A DNA stretch of 56,329 nucleotides from the NCBI GenBank assembly GCA_039683575.1, contig JBDKRC010000018.1, forward strand, positions 1-56,329, read 5' to 3'. Source of the DNA: Armatimonadia bacterium. GTDB lineage: Bacteria > Armatimonadota > Zipacnadia > Zipacnadales > UBA11051. Under the pieces are notes generated by a model that searched no databases, had not been told where the DNA came from, and worked only from the letters and a program-made list of their open reading frames with translations. A program made the translations under genes and the position numbers. This document shows, piece by piece, positions 2,960-34,705 of the stretch (the first letter of the stretch is position 1; each line of letters opens with the position of its first letter).

Positions 2960-3048
2960 CTCTGCCTGCTGCGACTGTTCACGTCAGGTGGGCATACTCA
3001 TAGCGTTCCGGTCAGTGTAGCTGGCCATACTCACAGGAGGTGACGGGT

Positions 3049-3339
3049 ATGAAGAAGAACACGTGGATCATACTGGCGGTGCTTCTGGTCGCGGCGCTGC
3101 TTGTGGCCTTGCCGGCCATCTGCCAGCCGCCGCCCCCCGGGGACATGGGCGGAGCGCCAGGGATGGGTGGCCCAGGAGGCCCTCCGGGAACTGCCTTGGC
3201 GGTTGGGGCACAGGGCGTCTACGTCACGGCGGGTCTGCAGGTCTTCCGCCTGGACCCGGAGACACTGAAGGTGGTGGCGAAGGTCGAATTGCCGCGCCCC
3301 GAGCGGCCGGATGATGCCGGCAAACCAGCGGGCAACTGA
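3049..3339 (+). CDS. Small secreted Pro/Gly/Met-rich hypothetical protein
   Basis: RBS AGGAGG 8 nt before the ATG at 3049. Signal peptide MKKNTWIILAVLLVAALLVALPA, then PPPPGDMGGAPGMGGPGGPP and a short beta-rich segment. Confidence 0.75.
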   Translation: MKKNTWIILAVLLVAALLVALPAICQPPPPGDMGGAPGMGGPGGPPGTALAVGAQGVYVTAGLQVFRLDPETLKVVAKVELPRPERPDDAGKPAGN

Positions 3340-3464
3340 ATGGGAAAAGGGGCGATGGGGCCCGCGGCGCCGCCCCCTGGCTCCCGGGCCCCTCGTTATA
3401 GCGGAATGTAGGTACCGCTGAGCACGTCATGCTCGTGGTGATGGGATAAAGGAGATCCGGTAAC

Positions 3465-4775
3465 ATGACAACGACAAAACAATGGCGTCTGGTTGTCTTT
3501 ATGACGGTTGCATACGGTCTGATGGGGGCAATGCTACTCACCAGTGGCTGCATCGCCGCGCCAGGACAGGGAGGACAGCGGGGCCAGGAACCGCGTCGCC
3601 CAGGTCCGCAGCGCGGTACGGGCCCGGAGGTCATGGACATGTCGCGGACGCTGTCAGAGCGCGGGCAACTCCACACCATCGCGTTCAGCGGCTTCGCCTT
3701 CCTCACTGGCAACCTCGGCGCGGATTCCTTCTTCCCGCCCGGTAAGGTCGCGGACTGGTGGGGCTTTCAGTACCTGCGGGACAATGACCCGAGCGGTTTG
3801 GGCCACAACACGGACTTCTTGACCAAGGCCGCCTACAACATGCTCTACGTACTGGACGAGCAGCAGCGGGCGCAACTCGTGGCCCTGGCGCAACAGCAGG
3901 TCAAGCCCATCAACGACTATGCCCTCCGACGCTTCCCACTGATGCAGGCCTTCCGGCGGCAGTTGACAGCCGACGTTCCGGCGGGGTCCAAGGGCCTCGA
4001 CAAGGCCGCAGTGCTGGCCTACTCGGCGGGGCTGTATAAGCTCGATGGTGAGATGAGCCTGCAGCGGGCAGAAGTGATGGGAGGCATACTCCACAGGCTG
4101 AATGCCCAGCAGCGTGCCTATCTCGACAAGCTCAAAGGCACTGGCATGGCTACATGGCCTACCCTCGACGAGCCGATAGATCGCCGCAGCCTGCCGCATG
4201 ACGTGCATGTGGCTGTAATGACCTACGCCGGAGACATGTTCAGCTGGTATATGGGCAACATCGAGGCCGACGTGTACTTCTGCCCAGAGCGGCAGGGGAC
4301 GTACTTCGGTGGTTTCTATCTCAAGGATGCGCCCGCGATGGGCAATCCCAACTATACCATCAGCAACCGTCTCACCGGTGACGTGGGGGCGACGATGCTC
4401 TCCAAGCTCGCTCCGACGCAGGCACAGCAGGTCACGAGCCTTGTGCCGGCCCAGGCTCCGGTTCTGCAGGAGATCGTCAACGCCCGGCGCGCCATTGCCA
4501 CGCAGTTGCGCCGTTATATAGCGGGCGAGGCGGTGGACAAGGCCGAGGTGCTGGCCCTGTCGGAGAAGTATGGGCAGTTGGATGGTGAGATCATCTACGG
4601 CGATGCCATGGCCTTCGCGCAGGTGGGGCAGAGTCTGAGCGCCCAGCAAAAGGCTGATTTCGCGGCGATGCGTCAGCAGATCGGCGTGGGCGTGCCGCAG
4701 GGCGCTTTCATCTACTCAACGCCAGTGCAGAGGCCGAGCATACAGAACACTGACTTCCTGTTCGGGGTGAAGTGA
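3465..4775 (+). CDS. Putative lipoprotein with two Spy/CpxP/ZraP-like helical domains
   Basis: RBS AAGGAG and lipobox-like LLTSGC. Four LTxxQ-like motifs: LDEQQ, LNAQQ, LAPTQ, LSAQQ. Internal duplication DKAAVLAYSAGLYKLDGEM / DKAEVLALSEKYGQLDGEI. Confidence 0.6.
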   Translation: MTTTKQWRLVVFMTVAYGLMGAMLLTSGCIAAPGQGGQRGQEPRRPGPQRGTGPEVMDMSRTLSERGQLHTIAFSGFAFLTGNLGADSFFPPGKVADWWGFQYLRDNDPSGLGHNTDFLTKAAYNMLYVLDEQQRAQLVALAQQQVKPINDYALRRFPLMQAFRRQLTADVPAGSKGLDKAAVLAYSAGLYKLDGEMSLQRAEVMGGILHRLNAQQRAYLDKLKGTGMATWPTLDEPIDRRSLPHDVHVAVMTYAGDMFSWYMGNIEADVYFCPERQGTYFGGFYLKDAPAMGNPNYTISNRLTGDVGATMLSKLAPTQAQQVTSLVPAQAPVLQEIVNARRAIATQLRRYIAGEAVDKAEVLALSEKYGQLDGEIIYGDAMAFAQVGQSLSAQQKADFAAMRQQIGVGVPQGAFIYSTPVQRPSIQNTDFLFGVK

Positions 4776-6241
4776 TGACCTTCCATCGGCGACGCTGGAC
4801 GTGCTATCTGCCCCAGCTCCTTGTGTTGGTGGTAGGCGTGGCGCTAGTGGTGCCTACTGGCTGGGCACAGGAGGGCGGCAAGCGTGGGCGCGGCGGATCG
4901 CGGGAGGTGGTGTTGCCCGCCGACATGGCGGCTGTGGCAGCGCTATCTGTCATTGCAGGGCGTCCCACTGACAGCTCAATCGTGATCAACGTCCTCTCCG
5001 GCACTGCCGGAGAGGGCCTGATCGAATATGGCACCTCCCCGGGCCAGTACGTGTCCAGGACGGAGACCGTAGCCTTCGCTGCGAACACGCCGGTGGAAGT
5101 CGTGCTGAGTGCCCTGCGGCCAGATACCGAGTACCTCTACCGGGTGCTGGTGGGTGACAAAGCATCGGCGGAACAGCGCTTCCATACCCAACGCGCGGCC
5201 GGTAGTGCCTTCACGTTTGAGATACAGGGCGATTCGCATCCCGAGCGACCGCAGATGTTCGACGCGACGCTGTACGCACAGACTCTGCGGGCCGCGGCGG
5301 CGGACCGTCCGGATTTCTACATCGCCATCGGTGATGACTTCAGCGTGGACACACTACAGACTGCGACTGCGGAGGCTGTGGAGGGCATCTACCGCACCCA
5401 GCGGCTATTCCTGAGCCTTGCGGGCGCCCCGGTCTTCCTGGTCAATGGCAATCATGAGCAGGCCGCCTTGTGTAACCTCGACGGCACGCCCAACAATGTC
5501 GCCATATGGGCCGGGGTCAGCCGCAACAGGTACTTCCCCCAGCCCGCGCCGGACGGTTTCTATAGCGGCGACACCCAGCCTGTTGAGCACGTAGGTCTGC
5601 TGCGAGACTACTACGCCTGGACCTGGGGCGACGCCCTGTTTGTGGTGATTGACCCCTACTGGCATTCGTCCCAGCCGGTCGACAACGTGCGTGGTAGTCG
5701 GGAGAAGGCCGCCCGAGACCTTTGGGGCGCCACCCTGGGTAATGAGCAGTACCAGTGGCTCAAGCAGACACTCGAAGGCAGTAGAGCGAAGTACAAGTTC
5801 GTCTTTGCGCATCATGTACTGGGGACCGGGCGCGGTGGGATCGAGGAGGCTGGGCTATACGAATGGGGCGGCAAGGACAGGCGTGGCGGGTCTGAATTCG
5901 CCCAGAAGCGTCCTGGCTGGCAGTTGCCCATCCACCAGTTGATGGCCAAGAACGGCGTCACGATCTTCTTCCAGGGGCATGATCACATCTTCGTCAAGCA
6001 GGAGCTCGATGGCGTGGTCTATCAGTCGCTGCCTCTGCCGGCTGACCCGTACTATGCCCTCTACAATCGCGACGCGTACCGTAGCGGCGAGGCGCTGCCG
6101 GGCTCGGGTCGATTACGGGTGAGCGTGTCTCCGGAGAAGGTTGGAGTGGCCTACGTGCGCTCGTATCTGCCCAGGGACGAGACCGCCGAGCACAAGAATG
6201 GAGAGATCGGGTACAGCTATGAAGTCCTCCCTGCTCGCTAA
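4772..6241 (+). CDS. Secreted metallophosphoesterase (FN3-like N-terminal domain plus calcineurin-like domain)
   Basis: Signal peptide, FN3 motif LRPDTEYLYRV, metal motifs GDSH, GDD, GNHE, HH and GHDH. Start overlaps the upstream stop. Confidence 0.88.
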   Translation: MMTFHRRRWTCYLPQLLVLVVGVALVVPTGWAQEGGKRGRGGSREVVLPADMAAVAALSVIAGRPTDSSIVINVLSGTAGEGLIEYGTSPGQYVSRTETVAFAANTPVEVVLSALRPDTEYLYRVLVGDKASAEQRFHTQRAAGSAFTFEIQGDSHPERPQMFDATLYAQTLRAAAADRPDFYIAIGDDFSVDTLQTATAEAVEGIYRTQRLFLSLAGAPVFLVNGNHEQAALCNLDGTPNNVAIWAGVSRNRYFPQPAPDGFYSGDTQPVEHVGLLRDYYAWTWGDALFVVIDPYWHSSQPVDNVRGSREKAARDLWGATLGNEQYQWLKQTLEGSRAKYKFVFAHHVLGTGRGGIEEAGLYEWGGKDRRGGSEFAQKRPGWQLPIHQLMAKNGVTIFFQGHDHIFVKQELDGVVYQSLPLPADPYYALYNRDAYRSGEALPGSGRLRVSVSPEKVGVAYVRSYLPRDETAEHKNGEIGYSYEVLPAR

Positions 6242-7661
6242 GCTACTGATTGCAGGCTGTGCGGTGGCGCTGGTGTTCCTCGTGCAGGCCGCGCCGGAGA
6301 CGCCATCAGGGCAGAAGCCCGCGCAGGGGCAGCAGCGAGGCCCGGCGCAGAATCTGCCGCCGTGCTTTCGCACCGAGGTGCCAGCCCACCCCTTCGACAT
6401 CATCCTCGGGCGGCCGACGGATCACTCAGGCACTGCCAGTGTGCTGTCATATGCGGACGGGGAGGCGTATGTGGAGTGGGGGACAGGGCAGGGAAGCTAC
6501 TCTGGCAGGACACAGGTGGTCAGACTGGTGGCGGGGGAGCCGAGGGAGATCGTGCTGCAGCCATTGTCACCGGACACGCAGTATTTCTACCGACTCCGCT
6601 ACCGTAACGGCACGGGCGAGTTCGCGGCCAGTGACGAGTACCGGTTCCACACTCAGCGCAAAGCAGGCGATCCCTTCACCTTCACCATCCAGGCCGATTC
6701 ACACCTGGACGAACGTACCGACACCAACCTCTATACGACCACCTTGCGCAACGCGCTGGCCGACTCGCCGGACTTCAGCGTGGACCTCGGCGATACGTTT
6801 ATGTGTGACAAAGTGCGGCCGTTGGGGCAACCGATATTGGGGATGCACCTGGCGCAGCGGTACTACCTGGGGCTGCTCAGCGCGTCTGCGCCGCTGTTCT
6901 ACGTGATCGGGAACCACGATGGCGAGACCGGTAATCAGGACCCTGAGGCGGTGGCGTTGCGACAAAAGTACCTGCCTAACCCACTGCCGGACGGAACGTA
7001 CTCCGGCAATGACAGCGAGCGGCGGGGCAACTACTACGCCTGGACCTGGGGGGATGCACTGTTCATCGTGCTTGATCCGTTTGCGTACACGACAGGGCGG
7101 ATCCGGACCGCAGACGACAATTGGAGCCGAACGCTGGGGGAGACGCAGTACCGTTGGCTGGCGCGCACGCTGGAAAGCAGCCGGACGCCTCTCAAGTTTG
7201 TGTTCATCCATCACCTCGTTGGGGGCCTGGACAAAAATGGACGAGGTGGGGCAGAGGCCGCGCCCTACTTCGAGTGGGGTGGGCACTGTCTGGACGGGTC
7301 GGAGCGGTTTGCCGCGATGCGTCCGGGCTGGGGCCTGCCGATCCACCAGTTACTCGTCAAGCACGGGGTCTCAGTCGTGTTCCACGGGCACGACCACCTG
7401 TACGCCCGGCAGGAGCTGGATGGGGTTGTGTATCAGGAAGTGCCGCAGCCCGGCTGGGTCGGTGGGGAGAGAGTGAACGAGGCGGCCAACTACGGCTATG
7501 CCAGCGGCCAGATCATCGCCAGTTCCGGGCACCTGCGTGTGCAGGTGGGGCCCACAGGCGCCACGGTGTCATATGTGCGTTCCTATCTACCCGCGAATGA
7601 GACAGGCGGGCGCAAGAACGGGCAGATCGGGTACAGCTACGAAGTCAAAGCCCGTCAGTGA
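6219..7661 (+). CDS. Second secreted FN3-metallophosphoesterase (tandem paralogue)
   Basis: Start reassigned to the ATG at 6219 (signal MKSSLLAKLLIAGCAVALV). Motifs ADSH, GDT, GNHD, HH and GHDH. Shares YYAWTWGDALF and KNGxIGYSYEV with the upstream gene. Confidence 0.88.
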   Translation: MKSSLLAKLLIAGCAVALVFLVQAAPETPSGQKPAQGQQRGPAQNLPPCFRTEVPAHPFDIILGRPTDHSGTASVLSYADGEAYVEWGTGQGSYSGRTQVVRLVAGEPREIVLQPLSPDTQYFYRLRYRNGTGEFAASDEYRFHTQRKAGDPFTFTIQADSHLDERTDTNLYTTTLRNALADSPDFSVDLGDTFMCDKVRPLGQPILGMHLAQRYYLGLLSASAPLFYVIGNHDGETGNQDPEAVALRQKYLPNPLPDGTYSGNDSERRGNYYAWTWGDALFIVLDPFAYTTGRIRTADDNWSRTLGETQYRWLARTLESSRTPLKFVFIHHLVGGLDKNGRGGAEAAPYFEWGGHCLDGSERFAAMRPGWGLPIHQLLVKHGVSVVFHGHDHLYARQELDGVVYQEVPQPGWVGGERVNEAANYGYASGQIIASSGHLRVQVGPTGATVSYVRSYLPANETGGRKNGQIGYSYEVKARQ

Positions 7662-7713: not shown

Positions 7714-10700
7714 TCAGTCGACTCGCACCAGCGCCACAAAGTCCATCGCCAGCCCGTCCCCCAGGTTGGTCATGCGGAGCATGTGGTCGCCTGCGGTCAG
7801 TGGCAGCGTCAGGTCTTTGCCGCCAGCGTCTTGCAGCGTCAGGTACTTCCAGTCCTGGGGACTGGCGCCGAAGCCGCCGGTGCGCGGGAAGGCTATCTCA
7901 GCGGCGGTGGGGTTTGGCACCTTGCCGTCTATCTGCAGGCTCCGGCGGGTCTTCTCGCTGAGCGTACCGTAGCGGAAGATCACGTGGTAGTTGCCGGTCT
8001 GCGGCACGGTGAACTTCCACTGCAGCCAATGACCGAGATCATTGTGCCACTTGGTGATCGCCTTTCCCCAGACCGCCTGGCGGTCTGAGACGATCTCCGC
8101 AAGGCCCTCCCCCTGTTCGGCGAAGTCCTCAGCCTGCACCACGATCAGGCGCTCTGGCGGGGTCTTCGTCAGCCATTCGGGCTTGACGAACGCCGTCAGC
8201 GCCTGCTGCCGGGCCTCGTCTATGGTCAGGCCCATGGCGGCAAGGTCCGCGAGCAGGCGCGGAGCACAGCGGTAGTACATCGAGAAGCTCTTGCCATACC
8301 CGGCGCCATTAGCGCCCAGAGCCAGACCGTTGGTCAGGGCATCGGAGAAGATCGGGTCCTTGGTCCAACGGTAGGCGCGCGCGATCCCCTCGGCCATCAG
8401 CGGCGTCACGCCTGCCGTATAGCGCATGTTGGGGCAAGGGGTATAGCGGAAGCCGTGGGTCTCCTTTGAGTACATCTCCTCGATCAGATAGCGTGCGCCC
8501 TTGATGATGCACTGCTTGACGGCGGGCTCCGCAGTCACGTCGTGGTAATAGGTGAGACCGGTGAGCAGGATGGCGATCATGAAGTTGGCATTGCCGCGAT
8601 GGCGGGGCTCGCAAGTGCAGTGGCCCGGTACCATCATGCGCGTCCAGCCGCCATTCTGATGGGTGTGGCCGGGCTCCTGCTGGTATCTGGGTAGTTCGCG
8701 CGGTTCGGGGTCCTGGGCTTCCAGGGTCCGGTCCACGACGATCCGCGAGGCGTTGAGGTAGTACGGGTCGTTGGTGGCCGCCAGCGCGGAGGCAAGCATG
8801 ATCAGGTGCCAGCCGGGCTCACGGGCGCTCAGCCAATCGTAGGGCCGGGACATTTCCTTGTCGGTGAAGTAGTCCACCAGTGCCATTCCAGTTTCCAGTG
8901 AGCGTGGGTCGCCGGTGAGGTAATAGTGGTCGAAGTGGCCCTCTGTCCAGGCATGGGTGACTGAGCCGCCACCGCTGGGGATGCCGAGGGTACCTGGCAC
9001 TGACTCGGTGTAGTAGCCGCCGACATGCCCCATCTGGTGTACCCAGGCGAGGCCGACGCCGTGCGGGTCGGGTGCCCACTGCACGGTGTCTACGTCCCGG
9101 TTGTGCTTCTCGGTGGCATCGCCCAGGAAGAAAGCGTCGGGGTTGCCGGAGCGGATGTATTCCAGGAAGAAAGCGTGCTGGGTGTCATATTCGATGTTCC
9201 CCCAGTTTGCTCCGCGCTCTCCATACCAGTCGCCATAGTTCATGAGACCGTAGTCATGCTGGCGCTCGCAAGCGGCCTGGTATTCCTTGAGGTTGCGGTC
9301 CACCGCTTGCTCGTATGCCGCAAACAGCTTCTCGTTGCGCGGGGCCACATTGTAGAAGACCATGCTGCCGGTGTACCACTCGGGCGCGGCAGTCAGCAGC
9401 AGCGGCCTCTGGAAGATCTGGGAGTTGGCCGCTGCCCCGGAGCCAAAGTCGAGCAGCAGGTCGTGGGTCTTGCTCATGCCCTGCTTGAAGCGGTAGTGGC
9501 CGTCGAGCAGGTAGTAGTAGAGGTGATGGCCCTCCTTCTCAAAGGGGAAGGCGTCGTACTTGCCCTTCTCAAAGTCGGGGGCCAGGTCCACCCGCAGGCC
9601 CTCGTCCGTCACGGCGAAGCCCTTGGGATAGTTCTGCCAGCAGTCGCGCACCGTGACGGCCAACGAGCCGTCGGCGGCAGAGACGCCCCCAGCCAGGCGC
9701 CCCTTGGCCCCTGCGTCCGCTCCACGCACGTACTCCTGATCAAAGCGCTGCCAGACGGCGTCTCCGGAAGCCAATGCCAGCGGCTCCCCCTCGGCCAGGG
9801 CGGCCTTCCAGCCGACGCGACCGGCGGGGATCGCGAAGCTGAGGCTCTCGATATTGGTGTAGGGCGTCTCTCGATCGTTGATGAACGTGTGCTGAACCTG
9901 CACGAAGGGCTGGCCCCGCCACGCTGTGATGCGTTGTTCGATGCGGAAGGACTTGCTGCCGTCGTCGGCTTGCAGGTTGGTGACGGTCTTGACGACCGCG
10001 CGCACTGGACCGGCTTCTTCGATGGTCGCCGTGGCAGGTCCCGGCTTGGTGGTGAATACCTTGCCACCCTCGCCAACCAGCCGGGTCTCACAGCGCCCGT
10101 TCGGGCCCCAGAGTTCGCCGTTAGCGTCAACCTTGAACTGCGTTGCGCCGGTGTCAATACGGATGCCGTCGGCGCCTGCTACTGCTAAGGGTGCGCCACT
10201 GAGTTGCCGCTTGACGCCGCGGCCGAACTCGAGAGTGTAGTTCGCGCTCTCTCCCTTGCGAACGTCGGCCAGTAGAGTTACCAGAACCCACTTCAGGCTG
10301 CCGTCGGCCCACGTGCCCAAGGGTTTGAACTGCGCTGGAACTTCCTTGCCGTCGCGGGTGAGGCGCAGGTCGTTCTCGCTGCCGAGAGCCCCCTGCGGGA
10401 AGGGGATGCCGCTGGTGACGGGGGAGCCGACTGCATCTACGTTGTGCCAGTTGCGCACGGTCAGCGGCACTTTGGTGACGCCCTGACGGGTGAGCGGCGC
10501 GGGAACGCCGTCGGCGGTGAAGGTCACGTCTGGGCCGTAGTACAGGTTGCCGTCGGGCCTGGTACCCACACCGCGGCCGTGATAGGTAACGCCGGGGCGC
10601 AGGCCGCTGAGGTAGGCACGGTGGACGAGGCGGTTGCACTGTTCCGTCGCGACTTCCCCGTACTTGGCGGTGGTCCCGTATTCGAAGCGGCTGGCGGAGG

Positions 10701-15033: not shown

Positions 15034-16053
15034 ATGAGTACCATGCTTACATCCGCAGACGTGAAGGCTTTTGCTCGTAGTTGTGGCGCCGATCTGGTGG
15101 GAATTGGGGATCTCAGCCGCTTTGAGGGGGCGCCGCCGGAGATGGACGCGCGCCACCTCTTTCCCGACGCCAAGGCCATCGTCGGGCTGGCTTTCCGGAT
15201 TCCGCGCGGCTATCTGCGTGGGATCGAGGAAGGCACGAACTTCTACCAGTACCCTTCGATGGGCTATGCCAACATCAACGAGGTCTACGCGCCGAGTGTG
15301 CTGCACGAACTGTCGTGTTTCCTCGAAGATCACGGGTACGAGGGCGCAGCCTACCGCAACACCGGCGGACGCATGGCCTCGTCGGACATGACCGGCGACT
15401 ACGACGAGTCCCCGGACTATGGCCGGCGTATTCGCCACTCGGAGCCAGTCGCGCCAGGCCGGCCGGCGCCCGACGTGATGTTCAGCTTCCGCATCGCGGC
15501 CTTCATCTGCGGACTGGGGGAAATCGGGTACAGCAAGATGTTCCTGACGCCCGAGTTTGGCCCCCGCCAGCGCTTTGCCTTCCTGCTCACTGACGCGCCC
15601 CTGGAGCCCGACCCGCTCTTCGAGGGCGCCATCTGCGACCGGTGCCAGGCCTGTGTCCGCGATTGCCCAATCGGAGCGATCAGTGGGACGGAGACGGTGA
15701 AGATCACGGTGGCGGGGCGCGAACTGGAGTGGGGGCGGCTGGCGGAGTGGCAGTGCTTCCACGCCTACATGGGCAGCGTGAAGGAGATCAACCCCTTCCT
15801 GCCGCTGGATGCCTTCGCGGAACTACCCGACGGTGAGAAGATCCTGCGGGGTGAGAAGGCCCTGACGCCCGCGGAGGTCCTGCAGGTGCAGGCCATTCTG
15901 CGGCGGTACTACGGATCGGCGTGCGGCTACAACTCCGCGGTGTGCGGCGGACGTGGGTGCCTGCGCGCCTGCATGGTGCATCTTGAGCAACGCGGGACGC
16001 TGACCCGCGGCTTCGAGTCGCCCTTCCGCAAGCGCCCTCCATGGCGGCTTTGA
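15034..16053 (+). CDS. Epoxyqueuosine reductase (QueG)/reductive dehalogenase-like cobalamin and 4Fe-4S protein
   Basis: GADLVGIG, AAFICGLGEIG, LTPEFGPRQRF...LTDAPLEPD, ferredoxin motif CDRCQACVRDCP and C-terminal CGGRGCLRAC. No Tat signal. Confidence 0.75.
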   Translation: MSTMLTSADVKAFARSCGADLVGIGDLSRFEGAPPEMDARHLFPDAKAIVGLAFRIPRGYLRGIEEGTNFYQYPSMGYANINEVYAPSVLHELSCFLEDHGYEGAAYRNTGGRMASSDMTGDYDESPDYGRRIRHSEPVAPGRPAPDVMFSFRIAAFICGLGEIGYSKMFLTPEFGPRQRFAFLLTDAPLEPDPLFEGAICDRCQACVRDCPIGAISGTETVKITVAGRELEWGRLAEWQCFHAYMGSVKEINPFLPLDAFAELPDGEKILRGEKALTPAEVLQVQAILRRYYGSACGYNSAVCGGRGCLRACMVHLEQRGTLTRGFESPFRKRPPWRL

Positions 16054-16264
16054 GCAGGTAAGTCCCTCTCTGAACCCTCTGCTTTGCCTCGTCTCAGCCC
16101 CAGTGCCGACGCCTCCCGCGGCACCGCAGTCCCCTGCCGGCACCGTTATCGACACAAAACATAGGATGCGTCGCTCTCGTCAATCTGTTTGAGATGCTGG
16201 AGTATTCCAGGAGTGTTGTGTGTCGGGGCGTCCGGTCAATTATCTGCCGACTGGGGATTTCACA

Positions 16265-19200
16265 ATGAGGCCGCACAGTGACAGCGGGAGGGCGGCGGTC
16301 GTCTGGGCAGAGGGCAGTCAACTCCGGTCGACTGAGGCATGGTCAGGAACCGCTCCTGCCTCGTCCGCTCAAGAGCGCCTGTGGTTCATGAGCCGTTACC
16401 ATGGTGGCGGCCCGGCGTATACCACAGTCGCTGCTGTGCGCCTGAAGGGACCCCTGAATGTGGTGGCGCTGGAGGCGGCTCTGAACGCCCTGCGCAGGCG
16501 CCACGATATCCTCCGGACGTCCTTCTCCGACACCGGCGCCGGCCTGCTGCAGAGCATCGCCCCGGCGCTGGATCAGCCCCTGTCATTGACCGATCTGCAG
16601 TGCCTCCCACCCGAAGCGCGCGAGCCTCAGGCGTTGGAACTGGCAACGGTCCTCTCTGAACTTCGCTTTGACCTTGATTGTGGCCCACTCATGGCTACAG
16701 ACCTGTTGCGTCTGGACAATACGCACCACCTGCTACTGACTGCCTGCCACCACTCGATCTTTGACGGCCCCTCCTGCGACCTGATGATGCAGGAACTCGC
16801 CGAGGCCTACGAAGCTTTCGAGCTGGGCGAGGTTCCGGATTTCGAGCCGCTGCCAGTGCAATACCACGATCTTGCGGTCTGGGAGCGGGAGCAACTGCAT
16901 GGCTCACACTTTCAGAGACTGCTGGACTTCTGGCGGCAGGAGCTCGCTGGGACGCCCCCGCTGGGGTTGCCCACGGACTTCTCCCGCCCCTCGGTCCGTA
17001 GTATGACTGGAAGCGTCACCCGTCACTTGCTTCCCTATAGGCTGGCCGACGCGCTGGATGAATTCTCCCGCAGCCACAATATGCCCCTGTTCGCAGTCCT
17101 GATGAGCGGTCTGCAGGTGTTGCTCCACCGCTACACCGGCCAGGACGACCTTGCCGTGGGCTTCCCCGTTGACATTCGAACGTGCCCGGAGTTCGAGAGG
17201 CTGATCGGCCCGTGCACCAATAGCCTGGTGCTTCGCGCCAGCCTGGATGGGAACCCAAGCTTTGCGGAGTTGCTGAACCGTCAGCAGCAGCGCCTGCTGG
17301 AAGTCTACGCCCACCAGAACATGCCATTCGCGCGGCTGGTCGACGAACTTGATCAACGTCACGATCCAGCCCGGTCGCCGCTGTTCGACGTGTCCCTGCA
17401 GTTGCGCCATGTGCCGTGCTCGCTCGAAAGGGGAGGACTAGAGTGGCAGCCAGTGGCAGTCGAGACGCTCGGCGCGCAGGTTGACCTGGCACTCGACATG
17501 ACCCAGACGGGGGACGGGCTGGCCATAGGTTGCCGATACAATGCGGGTCTCTTCACCGAGGACACGGTCTCGCGCCTGCTCGGCCACTACGAGAACCTCC
17601 TGGGAGACCTTGTCCAAAGCCCGCACAAGCGAGTGTCGGAGTTGGCGCTCCTGAGTGAGACCGAGTGCCGGCAGATACTCGTCGAGTGGAACGAGACCGC
17701 GCACCAATACCCTTCAGAGCAGTGCATCCACGAGCTCTTCATGGTTCGGGCACGCGAGAAGCCAGACGCGCTTGCGGCGGCGTACCGGACGCAGGCGCTG
17801 ACCTACGGGCAACTGGACGAGATCACTGACAAGCTTGCGGCCCACCTCGCGAGCCTCGGCGCCGGTCCGGGCCGGGCCGTCGGCATGTATACCACACCGG
17901 GGCTGGACATCCCTATTGCGTTCATGGGCGTGCTCAAAACTGGTGCCGCTTGCTTGCCGCTCGACCCCGCGCATCCCATGGAACGCGTGAGCTTTATGAT
18001 CGAGGACAGCGAGGCTGCGCTGGTGGTCGCCTCGTCTCGACTGGCAGAGACGCTGCAGGTAAGGCCCGGCGTGCGCGTAGTGCCCCTGGACCCTGTACTG
18101 TGGAAGCCCCCACAGACAGCGGAGCCATGCCCCGCTACACCAGACGACATCGCTTACATCACCTACACCTCCGGCTCGACCGGTAAGCCCAAAGGGGTCG
18201 CTGTGCGGCACCGCGGCATGGTCTCCCTGATGGCGCGGGGACATGATGTCCACTCGCCCGAGGTCCTGTCAGGCACTCTCCTTGCTACCTCGACCTCTTT
18301 TGACGCCGGAGTTGGCTCGGTCTTCATGGCACTCACGGGCGGGGGCTGCCTGATCCTGATAGACAACATCCTCGATCCGCACCTCTCCCTGCCGGTGCCA
18401 GTGACGCTGCTGGACGCCGTCCCGTCTGTCGTGTCGCAACTGGTGAGGCAGGGCACGCTCCCCGACACGGTGCACACGGTGGTCCTGAGCGGCGAGCCCG
18501 CTCCCGGCCCGCTGGTACGACGCCTGTATGAGAACCATGGGGTCAAGCGCGTCTTCAACGAGTACGGTCCGACAGAGACTACCCTGACGAGCACGGTGGC
18601 GCTCATCCCGCCTGACGCGGAAGAGCACCCGCCCATCGGGCGTCCCGTCTGGAATACGCGCGTGTATGTTCTGGACGAGTATCGCAACCCGGTACCAGTT
18701 GGCGTGTATGGCGAGCTGTATATCGCGGGTGTCGGAGTGGCCGCAGGCTATGTCAACGCTCCCGATCTGACCGAGCAGCGTTTCCTTCCGGATCCATTTG
18801 ACGCTGACGGAGGCGGGCGCATGTACCGCACGGGGGACCTCGTGCGGTACGATGCCGGCGGCAACCTGCACTTCCTGGGCCGCGCTGACAGTCAGGTCAA
18901 GATTCGCGGCTGTCGCATCGAACTTGGAGAAGTGGAGCGCGTGCTGTTGGAACACCCGGCGGTGCAGCGTGCTGTAGTCAGGGCGGTACCCGACGCCGCT
19001 GGCGGCCAGGCCCTTGCGGCCCATGTCATGCTCTGGCCGCGAGCCACTTTGACGCGAGAGCGCCTGAGGGAGCATCTTAAGGGACACTTGCCCGAGGTCA
19101 TGATCCCAACGCTGGTCACCTTCCTCGACAGCCTGCCCCTGCTGCCCTGCGGCAAGATAGACATAGATGCTCTGCCCGCTCCGCTAGCGGTGCCCCCCGT

Positions 19201-20266
19201 GGTTTCCGCTGGCGAGAAGACCCCTGAGCCCCTTGAAGCCCAGTTGCAGCGCCTGTGGGCTGAGGCCCTGGGAACAGAGCAGGTAGGGCTCGACGACAGC
19301 TTCTTTGACCTGGGCGGCCATTCGCTCACAGCGGCACGCCTGCTGGCAAGCATTCGCGAAGCGGTCGGGGGCAATCCACCGCTGCCCCTTCTCTTTCGTG
19401 CACCGACGGTCAGGCAGTTCGCTCGGGCGATCCTGGCCGGCGAGACGCTCGCCGCCGGCGATTGCCTCGTCCCCGTACAGCCCCAGGGCGACCGCCCACC
19501 CCTCTTCGCCGCCCACCACGAGACCGGTGAAGCCTTCTGCTATGTGCGGCTCAGCAAGTACCTGCCACCAGATCAGCCACTATATGGCCTGCGCGCCGAG
19601 GAAGAGCGTCTCTCGCCTTGTGACCTGACGCTGGCTGACCTGGCGGCTGACTACGTCGCGGCGATACGACAGCGTCAGCCTGTCGGGCCGTATTACCTCC
19701 TGGGCTACTCCCAGGCCGCGATGCTCGCCTGGGAACTCGCCCGGCAGTTGCGTGACCAGGGGCAGGAGATAGGCCTGCTGGCACTTATCGACTATCCGGC
19801 GGACTATGATGACTACATGCCCCCGTGTGGGCTGCCCCGGCTGCGTGACCCATGGCAGTTGCTGCGCGACCTCCCATTCACCTGGGCCTACGACTGGCGC
19901 CTGACGTGGGGTGAGCGGCGAGCGGAATGGGTCAATCGTCTGCGCCAACTGAGCGCCGCCTGTGGCTGCGGCACCTTCGATCCGCAACCAGATATCGTCG
20001 CCGATCCCATACGGCGCGGGCGGCTCGATAGCATGCTGCGAGCCTACCGGCCAGAACCATACGATGGTGACGTGGTCCTGTTTCGGGCGCGTCAACAGTG
20101 TCTATTCTGCTCCCATGACCGGGCGATGGGATGGCGCAGACTCGTGCAGGGCCGCCTGGACACTGTCAGCATTCCCGGCATCCATGCCCGCATGATGCAT
20201 GATCCGGCGGTAGAGAGCATAGCGAAACACCTGTCAAAGCGGCTGCAGGAGCCGCGGTTCCAATAG
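16265..20266 (+). CDS. Single-module non-ribosomal peptide synthetase (C-A-T-TE)
   Basis: C domain SSAQERLWF and HHSIFDG. A domain YTSGSTGKPKG, YGPTE, YRTGDL, GRADSQVKIRG and GKID. Carrier FFDLGGHSL. TE GYSQA and IPGIH. Alternative GTG start at 16220. Confidence 0.95.
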   Translation: MRPHSDSGRAAVVWAEGSQLRSTEAWSGTAPASSAQERLWFMSRYHGGGPAYTTVAAVRLKGPLNVVALEAALNALRRRHDILRTSFSDTGAGLLQSIAPALDQPLSLTDLQCLPPEAREPQALELATVLSELRFDLDCGPLMATDLLRLDNTHHLLLTACHHSIFDGPSCDLMMQELAEAYEAFELGEVPDFEPLPVQYHDLAVWEREQLHGSHFQRLLDFWRQELAGTPPLGLPTDFSRPSVRSMTGSVTRHLLPYRLADALDEFSRSHNMPLFAVLMSGLQVLLHRYTGQDDLAVGFPVDIRTCPEFERLIGPCTNSLVLRASLDGNPSFAELLNRQQQRLLEVYAHQNMPFARLVDELDQRHDPARSPLFDVSLQLRHVPCSLERGGLEWQPVAVETLGAQVDLALDMTQTGDGLAIGCRYNAGLFTEDTVSRLLGHYENLLGDLVQSPHKRVSELALLSETECRQILVEWNETAHQYPSEQCIHELFMVRAREKPDALAAAYRTQALTYGQLDEITDKLAAHLASLGAGPGRAVGMYTTPGLDIPIAFMGVLKTGAACLPLDPAHPMERVSFMIEDSEAALVVASSRLAETLQVRPGVRVVPLDPVLWKPPQTAEPCPATPDDIAYITYTSGSTGKPKGVAVRHRGMVSLMARGHDVHSPEVLSGTLLATSTSFDAGVGSVFMALTGGGCLILIDNILDPHLSLPVPVTLLDAVPSVVSQLVRQGTLPDTVHTVVLSGEPAPGPLVRRLYENHGVKRVFNEYGPTETTLTSTVALIPPDAEEHPPIGRPVWNTRVYVLDEYRNPVPVGVYGELYIAGVGVAAGYVNAPDLTEQRFLPDPFDADGGGRMYRTGDLVRYDAGGNLHFLGRADSQVKIRGCRIELGEVERVLLEHPAVQRAVVRAVPDAAGGQALAAHVMLWPRATLTRERLREHLKGHLPEVMIPTLVTFLDSLPLLPCGKIDIDALPAPLAVPPVVSAGEKTPEPLEAQLQRLWAEALGTEQVGLDDSFFDLGGHSLTAARLLASIREAVGGNPPLPLLFRAPTVRQFARAILAGETLAAGDCLVPVQPQGDRPPLFAAHHETGEAFCYVRLSKYLPPDQPLYGLRAEEERLSPCDLTLADLAADYVAAIRQRQPVGPYYLLGYSQAAMLAWELARQLRDQGQEIGLLALIDYPADYDDYMPPCGLPRLRDPWQLLRDLPFTWAYDWRLTWGERRAEWVNRLRQLSAACGCGTFDPQPDIVADPIRRGRLDSMLRAYRPEPYDGDVVLFRARQQCLFCSHDRAMGWRRLVQGRLDTVSIPGIHARMMHDPAVESIAKHLSKRLQEPRFQ

Positions 20267-20332
20267 GGGATGATCCGGCCGCTGACCCACACAGTGGGGA
20301 GGCGGAGCCTGACCGAGGGAGAGGAAGTAGTA

Positions 20333-21481
20333 ATGGTGGATATATTCGACAGACGACGGCTGGCTCACGTTACCGCCTTGCATCTGTACAAGGAGACACA
20401 GAACGCGGCTTTGCTGGTGCAGGCCTCTTGTACGGAGGCGGCCTGCTCGCAGATCCGTGAGTTCTACCTGGACGGTGGGTGCTGCGAACGCGTGATCATC
20501 TACCTGCACTCGCCCGGCTGCCGGTGGGCGGCGCAGAGCGACGGCGGGTGCTACATGTGCGGCCACTGGGCCGGGACCAAGCAGGGACAGACCATTCCCA
20601 GCAGCCTCATCGTCGAACAGGTTCACAGTGAGCTGGCGAAGTACGACTGGGCCAAGTACCCCGTCTTGTGTGTCTACAACGCCGGCAGCTTCACCTGCGA
20701 TCGTGAGATCACCCCGCAGGCCCGCCGCGAGATACTCCAGGCGATTGGGGCTGTGCCGGAGTTGAAGCTGCTCATCGTCGAGAGCCGTCCCGAGTTCATC
20801 ACGCCGCCGATGGCAGAGCAGTTCGCGTCCCTCGTCCCCTTCCATGTCCAGGTCGGCGTGGGCCTGGAGAGCGCCTCGGATCGCGTCCGCAGGCTCTGCA
20901 TCAACAAGGGCTTTGAGCGCGAGGACTTTGAGTTGGCCATCGCTACGTTGAACCAGGCCGGGGTCGGCTCCCTGGCTTACGTGCTGCTCAAGCCGCCTTT
21001 CCTGACCGAGATCGAAGCTATCGAGGACGCTGTGGACAGCATCCGCTATGCCTTCGAGGTCGGGGTAGAGGCCGTATCACTCGAACCGGTCTCCGTCCAG
21101 CCCCATACTCTTATCGAGCGTCTTCATGACGCGGGGGTGTACAGAGTCCCATGGACATGGTCAGTGCGTGAGGTCATCCGCGCCACGGCGCACCTGGGCG
21201 ACGTTCGCATCGGCGGTTTCGAGTACCATCCGGCACCCTACACCATCGTCCACAACTGTCCCGACTGCGACGAAGCCGCCTACAATGCCATCGCTCACTA
21301 CAATGCGACCAAGGACCTTGGGCCGCTCAATGCACTGGACTGCAGTTGTATCGGCGCCTGGGAGGCAGAGTGCGGGCTGTCGACCGAGCCCCTCGAGCAG
21401 CGGATCATCTCAGATTGCCTGGCCGTGCATGATGCATCCCGGCAATCCCACTGGGGAGTGACAGTGCCATGCGTCTCGTGA
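20333..21481 (+). CDS. Radical SAM protein of the TIGR01210/RaSEA (archaeosine-synthesis, Elp3-like) family
   Basis: GCRW....GGCYMCG (CX9CX2C), YNAGSF, VESRPEFI, VGLES...CINKGF, AYVLLKPPFLTE.EAIEDAV.SI, TLIERL...G.YR.PW.WSV and C-terminal HNC..CD...DC.C...W. These motifs match the RaSEA family. RBS GAGGGAGAGG before the ATG at 20333. Confidence 0.85.
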   Translation: MVDIFDRRRLAHVTALHLYKETQNAALLVQASCTEAACSQIREFYLDGGCCERVIIYLHSPGCRWAAQSDGGCYMCGHWAGTKQGQTIPSSLIVEQVHSELAKYDWAKYPVLCVYNAGSFTCDREITPQARREILQAIGAVPELKLLIVESRPEFITPPMAEQFASLVPFHVQVGVGLESASDRVRRLCINKGFEREDFELAIATLNQAGVGSLAYVLLKPPFLTEIEAIEDAVDSIRYAFEVGVEAVSLEPVSVQPHTLIERLHDAGVYRVPWTWSVREVIRATAHLGDVRIGGFEYHPAPYTIVHNCPDCDEAAYNAIAHYNATKDLGPLNALDCSCIGAWEAECGLSTEPLEQRIISDCLAVHDASRQSHWGVTVPCVS

Positions 21482-22188
21482 TCGCGCCGGAGATCGCTGC
21501 GGCCTATCCTGATCTGCGGATTGGAGTACTGGTGGGAACAGGGGCTGCCAACGACGGTGGGGCCGATGCCGCGGCTTTGGAGACGCTCAAGGCCGAGGCA
21601 GCCCAACACGCGCGGGCTCAGGGCTACACGACCGAGATGCTGTCCGAGCATCCCTTCATGTCTGCGTGGCGTGAAACCTACCGGAGTTTCGGAACCAAGC
21701 CCGGCAAATACCGCCCTACTGCCGAAGCGCTCGTGCGCCGCGTGCTCCAGGGAGACGGCATTCCGAGCATCTCGCCGTTGGTCGATGCATACCTGGCGGT
21801 CGAGGCGCGCTGGTGGCTTCCGGTCGGAGGGTATGACCTCGATCTGGTGAAGGGGGACGTAGTGCTGCGGTTCTCGGGCGGGGGAGAGGCCTTTCGGGGC
21901 ATAGGCGCCGACGAGGATGAATATACGGACCAGGGGGAAGTGATCTACTGTGACGATGAACGCGTCCTGACCCGGCGCTGGAACTACAAGGACGCCGACG
22001 CGACAAAAGTCACGCCCCAGAGCGTCAACGTCGTGCTGTGCGTCGAGGCCCCGACGGCGGCGATCCCTTCCGAAGCGGTGGCAGGATGCGTGGAAGCGAT
22101 GGCGGAGGGGCTAGAGGCCGTCTGCCACGGGAACTGGCGCACGATGATCTGCGATGCCACTGCCCCTGCGGTTCCGTTGACGGAGTAG
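21469..22188 (+). CDS. Standalone B3/4 (PheRS beta-type) tRNA-editing domain protein
   Basis: AWRETYRSFGTKPGKYRPTAEALVRR, ISPLVDAY, PVGGYDLD, GEVIYCDD...LTRRWNYK. Overlaps the radical SAM gene by 13 nt. Confidence 0.9.
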   Translation: MRLVIAPEIAAAYPDLRIGVLVGTGAANDGGADAAALETLKAEAAQHARAQGYTTEMLSEHPFMSAWRETYRSFGTKPGKYRPTAEALVRRVLQGDGIPSISPLVDAYLAVEARWWLPVGGYDLDLVKGDVVLRFSGGGEAFRGIGADEDEYTDQGEVIYCDDERVLTRRWNYKDADATKVTPQSVNVVLCVEAPTAAIPSEAVAGCVEAMAEGLEAVCHGNWRTMICDATAPAVPLTE

Positions 22189-22221
22189 CCCGGTGGTTCC
22201 TCCGGTTCTCCTGGTAAGGAC

Positions 22222-23886
22222 TTAGTGGCCGTTGCCGCCGTCTGCGTGGCGGATCTGCACCCGGCGGATCTTGCCGCTGATGGTCTTGGGCAGTTCGTCC
22301 ACGAACTCAACTACACGCGGGTACTTGTAGGGCGCCGTCACACGCTTGACGTGGTCCTGCAGTTCCTTTACCAGGGCGTCCGAGGCAGTGTAGCCCTTAG
22401 CCAGGATCACGGTCGCTTTCACGATCTGGCCCCGCACTGGATCCGGAGCGCCGGTGATTGCACACTCAATCACCGCTGGATGCTCCACGAGGGCGCTCTC
22501 CACTTCGAAGGGGCCGATACGGTAGCCGGAACTCTTGATCAAGTCATCGGCCCGGCCAACGAACCAGTAGTAGCCATCCTCATCACGCCAGGCCATGTCT
22601 CCGGTGTGGTAGATACCGTCATGCCACGCCCGTTTGGTCAAGTCTTCATCGCGATAGTAGCCCGCGAACATTCCCGGTGGGCGCGTGTCGCCGGTGCGGA
22701 TCACGATCTCGCCCTCAACGCCGACTTCGCAGGACTCGCCGTTGTCGTCCAGCAGGTCAACAGCGTACCCGGGAGTGGGCTTACCCATCGAGCCGGGACG
22801 TGGCTCAAGCCAGGGATACGTCGCGAGCGCCACGATCATCTCCGTCTGCCCATAGCCTTCCATGATCTTCATGTTGGTGCCAGCGAGGAAGTTGTCGAAA
22901 ACCTCCGGGTTCAGCGGCTCGCCGGCGACCACGCAGTACTCCAGGCCTGACAGATCGTATTTTGACACGTCTTCCTTGATCAGGAAGCGGTAGATGGTGG
23001 GCGGGGCGCAGAAGGTCTTCACCTTGTAGTCCTGGATCACCCGCAGCAGGTCTGCCGGCACGAACTTCTCATAGTCATACACGAAGACCTGGGCACCGCA
23101 AATCCACTGACCGTACATTTTGCCCCAGACGGCCTTTGCCCAGCCGGTGTCGGCGACCGTCAGATGCAGACCGTCTTTCCGAACGTTCTGCCAGTACGCT
23201 GCCGTCAGGATGTGCCCCAGCGGGTATGTGAAGTCGTGCTGCACCATCTTGGGCATCCCGGTCGTGCCCGAGGTGAAGTAGATCAGCATCATGTCTTCGT
23301 TCTGGGAAGCCTCATCGCCGGAAGGGCGTTCGAACTCCGCCGGCGCCTCGCTCAGGCCTTGCGCAAAGTCCAGCCAGCCCTCACGATGTCCGTCAACGAT
23401 CGCCTTGAGCTGCAGAGTCGGCGATTCCTCTTGCGCCTCGTCTACGTGGTGCAGCACCCACTCGTCATCGATGGTGATGATCATCTTGATGTCGGCGGAG
23501 TTGCAGCGGTAGACGATATCATGGGTGCTCAGCAGGTGGGTCGCAGGGACGGCCACCGCCCCGAGCTTGTGCAGGCCCAGCAGACAGAACCAGAACTGGT
23601 AGCGGCGCTTGAGGATCAGCATCACGCGGTCGCCACGCCCGATGCCGAGCGAGCGCAGGTAGTTGGCGGCCTTGTCGCTGTAGAGCTTCATCTCGCCGAA
23701 GGTGAAGCTGGCGCTGTCACCGGCCTCGTCGCACCAGACCAGCGCCACCTTGTCAGGATCGGTGGCGGCAATCTCGTCTACAACGTCAAAGGCGAAGTTG
23801 AAGTTCTCGGGGACGTCTATCCGGAAATCCCGCGTGAACTCTTCATAGGAAGCAAAAGATGTTTGCGGCAGAAAGCGATCGAGCAT
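22222..23886 (-). CDS. Acyl-CoA synthetase (acetate/medium-chain acid-CoA ligase, AMP-forming)
   Basis: [69 protein letters not shown] before the ATG at 23886. Confidence 0.92.
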
Positions 23887-23953
23887 CTGCAAAGACTCCT
23901 CATGTATCTGGGGCTCTGGCCCCCGATACGATAGCACTTCTGGGGGGACTATT

Positions 23954-24505
23954 TCAAAGGATAATGGCCAGGAACTGCGCCCGAGTGCCCCCGAGAGCGA
24001 TCATACCATGTTTCAGGCTTGAATCGAAATACAGCGAATCCCCGGCGTTCAGGATCAGTTCGTGGCCATCCAGAACGAGCTTGAGCGTGCCCTCGAGAAC
24101 ATAGTTGAACTCCTGCCCCGGATGCGAGTTGAGATGTATCTCCTCGTCGGGGTGCGGCTCGACAGTCACCAGGAACGGTTCTGCTTTCTTGTGGCTGAAG
24201 TTGTAGGCCAAGCTCTGGTAAGCATACTCCTGGCGCCGCTCGACCGCCACGCCCTTGCGCTGGCGAACCAGACAGTACGAGTGCAGCCGCGGCTCCTCTC
24301 CGGTCAGAAGGGCGGTGAGTTCCACACCAAAGCGGCCAGCTATCTGGTACAGCACGCTGACAGGGATATCACTGTTGCCGCTCTCATAGGCGGCGTACGT
24401 CTCAAGCGGGATACCGACATCCGCCGCGACCTGCTCCTGGGTTACGCCAGCGATATCGCGCAGGTCCTGAACGCGAGCGGCAATCTCTTTGAGTTGATCG
24501 GACAT
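23954..24505 (-). CDS. XRE-family HTH plus cupin transcriptional regulator
   Basis: N-terminal HTH ([23 protein letters not shown]) and cupin [12 protein letters not shown]...[10 protein letters not shown]. Commonly paired with the adjacent ligase. Confidence 0.9.
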
Positions 24506-34066: not shown

Positions 34067-34705
34067 CTACTGCAGCGTAGCGGGCTGGGCGGTCCAGCCG
34101 CTCCAGGACCGGTCCCTCATCTGGCTGGTCTTGACCCACTTGGCGTGGCCGTCGCAGAAGCCAACGTTGTTGCCTTCGTTGTGGCGTCCGGGAGTGGGAA
34201 TGCAGTTGTTTACATAGGGTGCTGGCTGCGAGCCGAGGTTGATGCACCGCAGTGAATACATGAAGTGCGTCCACTGGCCATCGTCGCGCTCCGCCTCGGC
34301 GAACATCAGGGCCTCGGAGGGCTGCTGAATGGACCCGAGGGACGCGCCGCGAGGACCGGTACCGCTGTCGGTGAAGAGGTTGTTCCAACTGACGCCATAG
34401 CCGATAGTATTGGGGCTGCTGGGGCAGCGGAAGATCTGCGTGTTCTTCACGTAAGGAGAGATGAAGTCATACCATAGGTAGTCGGATACGCCTGCGGTGT
34501 AGACGCGGTCCGGACACAGGCGCTCGTCATAGTCCTGCGCGTACTGCAGGAACGCCAAGAGCATCTGCTTCTCGTTGGATAGACAACTAGACTGCCGTGC
34601 CTTCTCACGGGCCTTGGCGAACACTGGGAACAGGATCGCGGCCAAAATGGCGATGATGGCGATGACAACCAGCAACTCGATCAGCGTGAACCCTCTTGTC
34701 CTCAT
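34067..34705 (-). CDS. Prepilin-type N-terminal cleavage/methylation protein with DUF1559 and H-X9-DG motif
   Basis: [71 protein letters not shown]. Confidence 0.93.

Follow-up and report, generated by a model that had tools for sequence, protein, structure and literature searches.

A bacterial RaSEA-like radical SAM protein paired with a pocket-remodeled CtdA-like B3/4 protein in a nonribosomal peptide synthetase island

Only one enzyme of the TIGR01210 family of radical S-adenosylmethionine (SAM) proteins has a known reaction, the archaeal enzyme RaSEA. Archaeal RaSEA is active only as a complex with ArcS and works on preQ0-Lys15 in tRNA, where its target is the lysine moiety of preQ0-lysine, an N-substituted amidine on the lysine side chain (PMC11298593). 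CtdA, a stand-alone B3/4 protein, is a canavanyl-tRNA(Arg) deacylase, and its characterized genes lie directly upstream of canavanine degradation operons (PMC10018355). More generally, stand-alone tRNA deacylases co-localize with gene clusters for non-canonical amino acids made by the host, as exemplified by FthB for 4-fluorothreonine and BesG for β-ethynylserine (Nat Chem 2026, PMC13149037). Here, we analyze a 56,329-nucleotide contig of an Armatimonadia bacterium (JBDKRC010000018.1 of assembly GCA_039683575.1; hereafter the window), in which a TIGR01210 radical SAM gene at 20333..21481 on the forward (+) strand overlaps a CtdA-like B3/4 gene.

The pairing of a bacterial RaSEA-like radical SAM protein with a pocket-remodeled CtdA-like B3/4 protein, here within a nonribosomal peptide synthetase (NRPS) island, is undescribed, and it points to an arginine- or lysine-like amino acid. 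A literature search returned no published description of the pair. The one related paper, PMC13149037, mined the AlaX family; in its accessible text, "CtdA" occurs 0 times in the main text and a pairing of B3/4 with a RaSEA-like protein is not described. The RaSEA name is very likely wrong for the bacterial clade, and the pairing provides a testable handle on what the enzyme does. It also extends to the B3/4 family the idea that a tRNA deacylase can mark the metabolism of non-canonical amino acids, and it may lead to a new arginine or lysine antimetabolite and to new radical SAM chemistry.

The radical SAM enzyme and archaeosine synthesis

The enzyme gene is contained in an open reading frame (ORF) at 20270..21481 (+), which offers an alternative ATG upstream at 20270. 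We start the protein at the ATG at 20333, which stands 7 nucleotides (nt) behind a Shine-Dalgarno-like sequence, GGGAGAGGA, read at 20317..20325 (+). The resulting protein has 382 residues, compared with 381 in a 98%-identical public protein, and its nearest public homolog carries the label Armatimonadia. Profile, alignment, and tree place it in a bacterial clade of the TIGR01210 (RaSEA-like) family. The NCBIfam TIGR01210 score is 231.9 bits against a curated cut-off of 212.15 (E = 1e-68; residues 50–345 on model positions 12–301 of 313). TIGR01210 is the equivalog model for "archaeosine biosynthesis radical SAM protein RaSEA". The Pfam model Radical_SAM is passed narrowly, with 30 bits against a cut-off of 29.5.

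The cluster motif of the enzyme reads C63-X9-C73-X2-C76 (CX9CX2C). Its three cysteines, together with C309 and C312 (HNCPDC) and C337 and C339 (CSC), are invariant in an alignment of 38 bacterial and archaeal homologs. RaSEA of Thermococcus kodakarensis is alike in these respects, as it belongs to the same family above the cut-off and has the same CX9CX2C motif and the same four C-terminal cysteines. A sequence-only reading of this stretch had named both the TIGR01210/RaSEA family and the motif set (CX9CX2C plus the C-terminal HNCxxC...CxC cysteines), and the profile score and the alignment bear out both assignments. In contrast to these shared features, the bacterial clade has MCGH after the cluster motif where archaeal enzymes have MC[SG]Y, and it carries an IGGFE[FY] segment before HNC.

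The AlphaFold2 model of the enzyme has a mean predicted local distance difference test (pLDDT) value of 88.3. When searched against the PDB, the model returned only generic radical SAM folds with template modeling (TM) scores (query) of ≤0.50, and a PDB sequence search with the enzyme gave no match at E ≤ 0.01. PylB and lysine 2,3-aminomutase show that free basic amino acids can be substrates of radical SAM enzymes. Both are listed among the generic fold matches (PylB, 3t7v, rank 38; lysine 2,3-aminomutase, 2a5h, rank 42), but at TM scores (query) of 0.41–0.46 and 11–12% identity they are no closer to the enzyme than TsrM, HydE, Elp3, or MiaB.

For comparison, we collected 97 loci, 17 from species genomes and the best 80 of 433 metagenome relatives, so that counts over these loci are not frequencies in nature. 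A 99-row tree was computed in a quick IQ-TREE run (LG+G4) with Shimodaira–Hasegawa-like approximate likelihood ratio test (SH-aLRT) support; six loci with matches of <270 amino acids and four duplicate sequences were left out. The midpoint root served for drawing, and only the unrooted split was used. This split has an SH-aLRT support of 100 and sets 51 rows, among them all 7 archaeal proteins named RaSEA, apart from the 48 rows of a bacterial side, on which the window enzyme lies within a 31-row clade (support 95). The label "archaeal-type" given to the enzyme in the sequence-only reading is therefore not upheld. As a control on the reading of neighborhoods, we counted ArcS genes (DUF5591+TGT_C2+PUA) beside the enzyme and found them at 8 archaeal-side loci and at 0 bacterial-side loci. 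Likewise, tblastn with the ArcS of one archaeal-side locus (L061) gave no match in the window at E ≤ 1 and matched 0 bacterial-side loci. Instead of ArcS, the enzyme has a B3/4 protein or an NRPS for a neighbor.

The enzyme is patchily distributed. Among 301 sampled genomes of its own phylum, which include 2 of the same genus and 4 of the same family, 1 has it, as does 1 of 399 sampled Clostridia.

The host genome (6.23 Mb, 352 contigs, 96% complete) contains a single TIGR01210 match above the cut-off, at 232.1 bits. The ArcS-specific domain DUF5591 (PF17884) has 0 matches in this genome, whereas the same search is positive in three euryarchaeal genomes. PF01702 gives one match only, a bacterial-type tRNA-guanine transglycosylase (TGT) in a 386-residue frame; ArcTGT or a second TGT-like gene was not found by this search. 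QueC is present, as expected for ordinary queuosine synthesis. The absence of ArcS and ArcTGT that had been noticed for the window thus holds there and extends to the genome-wide DUF5591 and PF01702 searches, and the suggested search for arcS, tgtA, and queCDE yields no ArcS domain, only a bacterial-type TGT, and QueC. We propose that the bacterial offshoot of RaSEA no longer works in archaeosine synthesis.

The bacterial homologs P0001, P0039, P0041, and P0088 all bear the public pipeline name "archaeosine biosynthesis radical SAM protein RaSEA". ArcS is missing from this genome and from the neighborhood of the enzyme gene at every bacterial-side locus. Applied to the bacterial members, the name probably stretches the equivalog model too far.

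Pfam searches on eight extended homologs of the enzyme revealed no extra domain in seven. The exception is P0073 (656 amino acids), in which an N-terminal TIR domain is fused to a TIGR01210-like radical SAM domain.

The B3/4 partner and its pocket

The start of the B3/4 gene (21469..22188, +) overlaps the stop of the radical SAM gene by 13 nt. It encodes a stand-alone protein of 239 amino acids (Pfam B3_4, 80.9 bits), whose nearest solved relatives in a PDB search are structures of CtdA (9f7e, E = 3.1e-26; 9mkl, E = 6.9e-19). Scoring adjacency by tblastn with the window proteins and by ORF clustering, we find a B3/4 homolog beside the enzyme at 9 of the 17 genome loci and at 21 of the 97 loci overall (tblastn). 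All 20 B3/4-adjacent rows of the tree fall inside the 31-row clade of the window enzyme. In the rest of this clade, 7 rows lack B3/4 although their flanks are long enough, 3 have flanks that are short, and 1 is a protein for which there is no context. The recurrent partner of the bacterial enzyme is thus a CtdA-like B3/4 gene, rather than an NRPS.

Like CtdA, the window protein stands alone and has the same length, and it keeps G116, N170, and a serine or threonine at position 80 (CtdA numbering). We mapped the CtdA positions through the printed 9f7e alignment and our own alignments. Accordingly, T84, L109, Y122, T168, Y173, and D175 of the window protein correspond to S80, N105, E118, C166, W171, and Q173 of CtdA. 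In contrast to CtdA, asparagine 105 is thus replaced by leucine, glutamate 118 by tyrosine, cysteine 166 by threonine, tryptophan 171 by tyrosine, and glutamine 173 by aspartate, so that the CtdA pocket set N105, E118, C166, and Q173 (or E173) is missing, with G116 retained.

The same remodeling is seen in other partners of the enzyme. The signature [TS]-L-Y-T-x-D at CtdA positions 80/105/118/166/171/173 is common to 15 of 17 enzyme-linked B3/4 proteins; the two that deviate, from loci L018 and L021, show the canonical SNECWE instead. Of the 399 sampled Clostridia, 43 possess stand-alone B3/4 genes, and neither L105 nor Y118 is found in any of 29 unlinked stand-alone B3/4 proteins from Clostridia without the enzyme. 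Because the signature is present in 15/17 linked and 0/29 unlinked proteins, the linked partners form a distinct, co-evolved subfamily, and the alignments indicate that the remodeled pocket is partner-specific.

An exhaustive profile search places L-Y-T-D at positions 105/118/166/173 in 51 of the 150 best B3/4 representatives. Among these 150, 28 representatives are longer than 300 amino acids: 15 contain an arginyl-tRNA synthetase (ArgRS) part, 6 a lysyl-tRNA synthetase (LysRS) part, 7 match none of the four references, and 0 contain a radical SAM domain. Pfam confirms the architectures B3/4–ArgRS, B3/4–LysRS class II, and LysRS class I–B3/4. The sole fusion that carries the linked signature is P0122 (TLYTWD), and its fusion partner is ArgRS. 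Relatives fused to ArgRS and LysRS are a further likeness to CtdA; in the accessible text of the CtdA papers, we found no mention of such fusions. As an aside, the CtdA-like B3/4 fusions (P0122, P0133, P0165, P0184, P0204, and others) resemble built-in editing domains for basic amino acid analogs.

Judged by their architectures, the fusions connect the family of the partner with tRNA(Arg) and tRNA(Lys) and lend indirect support to a lysine- or arginine-centered chemistry. This link agrees with the substrate of RaSEA, in which the side-chain nitrogen of lysine is bonded to an amidine carbon (PMC11298593), and by analogy the enzyme probably handles a lysine- or arginine-like side chain as well. 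The word "piperideine" is not in PMC11298593, and the piperideine-6-carboxylate by-product named in the sequence-only reading is thus not confirmed.

A complex prediction for the enzyme and the B3/4 protein scored 0.00, which counts neither for nor against an interaction. No radical SAM–B3/4 fusion was seen among eight longer homologs or the 28 long B3/4 representatives. The C-terminal extension of the 582-residue homolog at locus L016 was considered as a possible B3/4 domain and rejected (hhalign probability 0.14%). At locus L028, four tRNA genes (Ala-GGC, Arg-CCT, His-GTG, and Arg-TCT; positions 118–4448) surround the enzyme–B3/4 pair, a single-locus observation that may be due to chance.

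The island and the candidate role of the pair

Directly to the left of the enzyme lies a gene for a single-module NRPS of 1348 amino acids (16220..20266, +). All of its Pfam domains score above their cut-offs: Condensation (residues 43–487), AMP-binding (510–844), AMP-binding_C (904–979), PP-binding (1008–1071), and Thioesterase (1094–1195). The protein thus forms a complete condensation–adenylation–thiolation–thioesterase (C-A-T-TE) module that includes a release domain. From the NRPS end to the radical SAM start there are 66 nt on the same strand, and no promoter- or terminator-like site was found between 20266 and 20333. Downstream of and convergent with the B3/4 gene follows a gene for an acyl-CoA synthetase of 571 amino acids (22222..23937, reverse strand (−); Pfam AMP-binding and AMP-binding_C), whose best NCBIfam match, MbcS, stays under the cut-off (486 versus 850 bits). 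It is a possible supplier of an acyl donor for the C domain of the NRPS. At the edge of the island lies a gene for a helix-turn-helix (HTH)–cupin transcription regulator of 183 amino acids (23954..24505, −; Pfam Cupin_2, HTH_19, and HTH_3).

We searched positions 11000–27000 at the DNA level against five genomes of the same family. Except for 56 bp, nothing in 16220–24500 is matched, whereas the flanks are (12452–14810, 15033–16049, and 25624–26885). The NRPS, the enzyme, the B3/4 protein, the acyl-CoA synthetase, and the regulator therefore constitute an accessory island. The NRPS neighbor and the bacterial secondary-metabolism context pointed out in the sequence-only reading both stand, as a one-module NRPS adjoins the enzyme in an apparent accessory biosynthetic island. 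The window NRPS, acyl-CoA synthetase, and regulator have no counterpart at the 17 genome loci.

At other loci, the enzyme keeps different company. Enzyme, B3/4, a CPAC thioredoxin-like protein, and a 593-residue α/α toroid protein occur together at 8 loci, and at 7 loci the enzyme is followed by a small EamA transporter of 140 amino acids. L010/L011 add a B12 radical SAM protein, a methyltransferase, a PaaK-like ligase, a pyridoxal phosphate enzyme, and an extra tryptophanyl-tRNA synthetase (TrpRS; TIGR00233, 276 bits against a cut-off of 176.75). At L018 and L021, the B3/4 gene with the canonical signature is divergent from the enzyme gene, and the small EamA transporter follows. Such neighborhoods resemble pathways for small molecules or amino acids that come with export and self-protection.

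Tentatively, we favor a role for the enzyme in making or processing a basic non-canonical amino acid, with the B3/4 protein as a deacylase that guards translation and the NRPS as the user of the product. The amino acid would be free and would resemble arginine or lysine. The B3/4 protein, whose gene is translationally coupled, would serve as a dedicated editing factor, a CtdA-type deacylase that acts in trans on aminoacyl-tRNA and blocks the route of this amino acid into proteins by way of tRNA(Arg) or tRNA(Lys). The one-module NRPS would build the amino acid into an N-acyl or peptidyl product, possibly with acyl-CoA from the neighboring synthetase, and the HTH–cupin protein would control the island. 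In this scheme, we infer which class the substrate belongs to, that the partner is an active deacylase, that the pathway builds the amino acid instead of degrading it, and that the NRPS consumes it.

We favor this role because of the published paradigm that stand-alone tRNA deacylases mark clusters for host-made non-canonical amino acids (PMC13149037). In these clusters, a stand-alone editing homolog is co-localized and has co-evolved with biosynthetic genes, sometimes including an NRPS, and serves as a marker of self-protection. The window is similar in that the NRPS, radical SAM, and B3/4 genes are arranged like an operon in an island that is absent from the five genomes of the same family. 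A cationic substrate would also fit, if weakly, the two acidic residues in the adenylation-domain pocket of the NRPS that are described below.

Several observations weigh against a biosynthetic role. The characterized CtdA genes lie beside operons for canavanine degradation, not biosynthesis (PMC10018355), and no bacterial member of the enzyme family has a known substrate or product. Many loci hold the pair alone, with no further biosynthetic gene. An NRPS-like ORF flanks the enzyme at only 3 of 33 other bacterial-side loci (L035, L037, and L041), and the idea of a shared NRPS specificity had to be abandoned, as the adenylation (A)-domain pocket residues of L037 and L041 are alike and those of the window are different. 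The extra synthetase at L010/L011 is a TrpRS, which does not fit an arginine or lysine analog at that locus. Rfam searches at gathering scores in 17 sources including the window yielded no riboswitch or T-box that would name a ligand; the only matches were the 4 tRNA genes at L028.

Two further points concern the B3/4 protein itself. The CtdA mutants N105A, G116H/W, C166G, and Q173G are inactive, and C166 is described as strictly conserved (PMC12449066). Since the linked B3/4 proteins have leucine at position 105, where the N105A mutant is inactive, their hydrolase activity is not assured; the same leucine in the ArgRS-fused P0122 argues for a retained function. Moreover, five genomes that carry the enzyme contain no stand-alone B3/4 gene at E ≤ 1e-5. 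The partner is therefore dispensable, and this favors an accessory, protective role over that of a catalytic subunit.

A more daring version of the biosynthetic role, which we regard as doubtful, would have the bacterial clade perform radical C–N chemistry on amidino- or guanidino-substituted amino acids of the lysine/ornithine type, with the L-Y-T-D B3/4 proteins as a new, co-evolved class of tRNA(Arg) editing factors. Lysine could then act as the sacrificial nitrogen donor for a small-molecule amidine, or an unknown arginine antimetabolite could be made. In the boldest form, the enzyme might act on an amino acid in ester linkage to tRNA while the B3/4 protein holds it.

Because characterized CtdA genes adjoin canavanine degradation operons (PMC10018355), the main rival is detoxification or catabolism, which we consider unlikely. 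Here, the pair would defend the cell against an exogenous arginine antimetabolite (canavanine or a relative), with the NRPS as an unrelated neighbor; the enzyme would cleave the C–N or C–O bond next to the guanidino or amidino group of the free toxin, much as RaSEA releases lysine from an amidine, and the B3/4 protein would clear mischarged tRNA(Arg). Such a role would agree with the position of the only characterized stand-alone B3/4 directly upstream of degradation operons (PMC10018355), with the canonical B3/4 genes and EamA transporters of L018 and L021, with the many loci that hold the pair alone, and with the several carriers that are gut or rumen anaerobes according to their genome records. 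However, the window pair is co-directional and tightly packed with the NRPS, in an island that also holds an acyl-CoA synthetase, and B12 radical SAM, methyltransferase, and ligase genes accompany the enzyme elsewhere. Furthermore, 15 of the 17 linked partners lack a canavanine-type pocket, and no guanidine riboswitch was found at gathering scores in the 17 sources.

The replaced pocket residues also suggest a rather improbable adaptor role. A B3/4 protein that does not hydrolyze its ligand (N105 to leucine) would hold the aminoacyl end of charged tRNA(Arg) or tRNA(Lys), or else a ligand resembling an aminoacyl-adenylate, and present it to the enzyme, which would modify the bound amino acid, making the pair a bacterial counterpart of ArcS–RaSEA. 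Archaeal RaSEA indeed works only in complex with the tRNA-binding ArcS (PMC11298593), the B3/4 gene takes the adjacent, overlapping position, N105, E118, C166, and Q173 are all replaced in the linked partners, and an extra TrpRS gene lies beside the pair at L010/L011. An adaptor is difficult to reconcile with the five enzyme genomes that lack a stand-alone B3/4 gene and with the 0 radical SAM fusions among 28 long B3/4 proteins. In addition, L-Y-T-D is also found in an ArgRS-fused B3/4 protein, for which editing is the simpler reading.

The sequence-only reading had suggested that the NRPS replaces ArcS: it would attach lysine to a small-molecule acceptor, and the enzyme would cleave off the carbon skeleton of the lysine and leave the nitrogen behind. 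We consider this improbable. NRPS and enzyme are indeed 66 nt apart on one strand of one island, NRPS-like genes flank the enzyme at three further loci, and an Nε-substituted lysine intermediate would mimic arginine and so account for a partner that edits tRNA. Anchored on motifs and following the positions of the Stachelhaus scheme, the residues of the A-domain pocket are D A G D V S E L T K. Two acidic residues among them, presumably D at 278 and E at 322, would be compatible with a basic amino acid, which is a weak indication of a cationic side chain. The top PDB match of the A domain, LgrA (537 bits), was discarded as a clue to specificity, since its score is the sum of two ordinary domain matches.

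Against a substitution of ArcS stand the NRPS adjacency at 3/33 other bacterial-side and 0/17 genome loci, the differing A-domain pockets, the B3/4 gene as the recurrent partner, and the lack of a candidate lysine-attaching enzyme at most loci with the pair. Moreover, an NRPS activates a carboxyl group. ArcS instead adds the ε-amine of lysine to a nitrile (PMC11298593), and for this reason the two chemistries are not equivalent. In sum, the sequence-only reading was right about the family, the bacterial host, the missing ArcS and ArcTGT, and the NRPS neighbor, and it overlooked the overlapping B3/4 gene; its archaeal-type label and the NRPS as a stand-in for ArcS are not supported.

Genuine archaeosine-type chemistry, in which the enzyme and an unrecognized partner would form G+ (or dG+) in the tRNA or DNA of a bacterium, is hardly credible: the score passes the TIGR01210 equivalog cut-off, QueC would make preQ0 available, and the 98%-identical protein is publicly named RaSEA, but the ArcS domain, ArcTGT, and a second TGT-like gene were not found in the genome, the tree places the enzyme on its bacterial side, with ArcS at none of the loci there, and its presence in 1 of 301 genomes of the phylum is unfit for a housekeeping tRNA modification.

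Further observations at related loci

The toroid loci L009, L013, L014, L026, L030/L031, L032, and L033 have in common that the enzyme ends in a conserved tail (7/7 distinct loci). This tail places a cysteine six or seven residues from the end (e.g. ...GGCGxYxL), and a PF00432-like α/α toroid protein of ∼593 amino acids is encoded in the operon. The small CPAC thioredoxin-like protein is also found in 6 of the 7 distinct toroid loci. Other clade members do not have the tail, and the window enzyme ends in ...PCVS and is not accompanied by a toroid gene. Possibly, the toroid enzyme uses the tail as a substrate or an anchor site.

A second cluster (L109, G006:C24:1-16000) is found in the Lachnospiraceae genome that holds L009. 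Its ORF at 2180..6748 encodes 1522 amino acids with a UvrA-like ATP-binding cassette ATPase and two TIGR01210-like radical SAM domains, and a separate TIGR01210-like protein of 388 amino acids is encoded at 9240..10406. The neighboring genes encode an ornithine/diaminopimelate/arginine decarboxylase, a PALP enzyme, an NAD-synthase-like protein, an AMP-binding enzyme, a BtrH_N protein, and KAS III-like proteins.

Elsewhere on the bacterial side of the tree, a 13-row clade (L045–L056 and L090), which includes a Berkelbacteria protein, never has B3/4. Its enzymes are always followed by a conserved protein of ∼238 amino acids on the opposite strand that has no Pfam match, and histidine kinase, sigma-54 activator, and sigma-54-like genes lie nearby.

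In the window itself, a 339-residue ORF just upstream of the island (15034..16053, +) contains a weak reductive-dehalogenase/QueG-like Fe-S segment (TIGR02486, 44 bits; TIGR00276, 23.7 bits; both far under their cut-offs) and has many DNA-level paralogs in one genome of the same genus. At 34067..34705 (−) and elsewhere, the window encodes a DUF1559/N-terminal-methylation protein, large DUF6259 proteins, HEAT-repeat proteins, and PcRGLX-like and rhamnosidase glycoside hydrolases.

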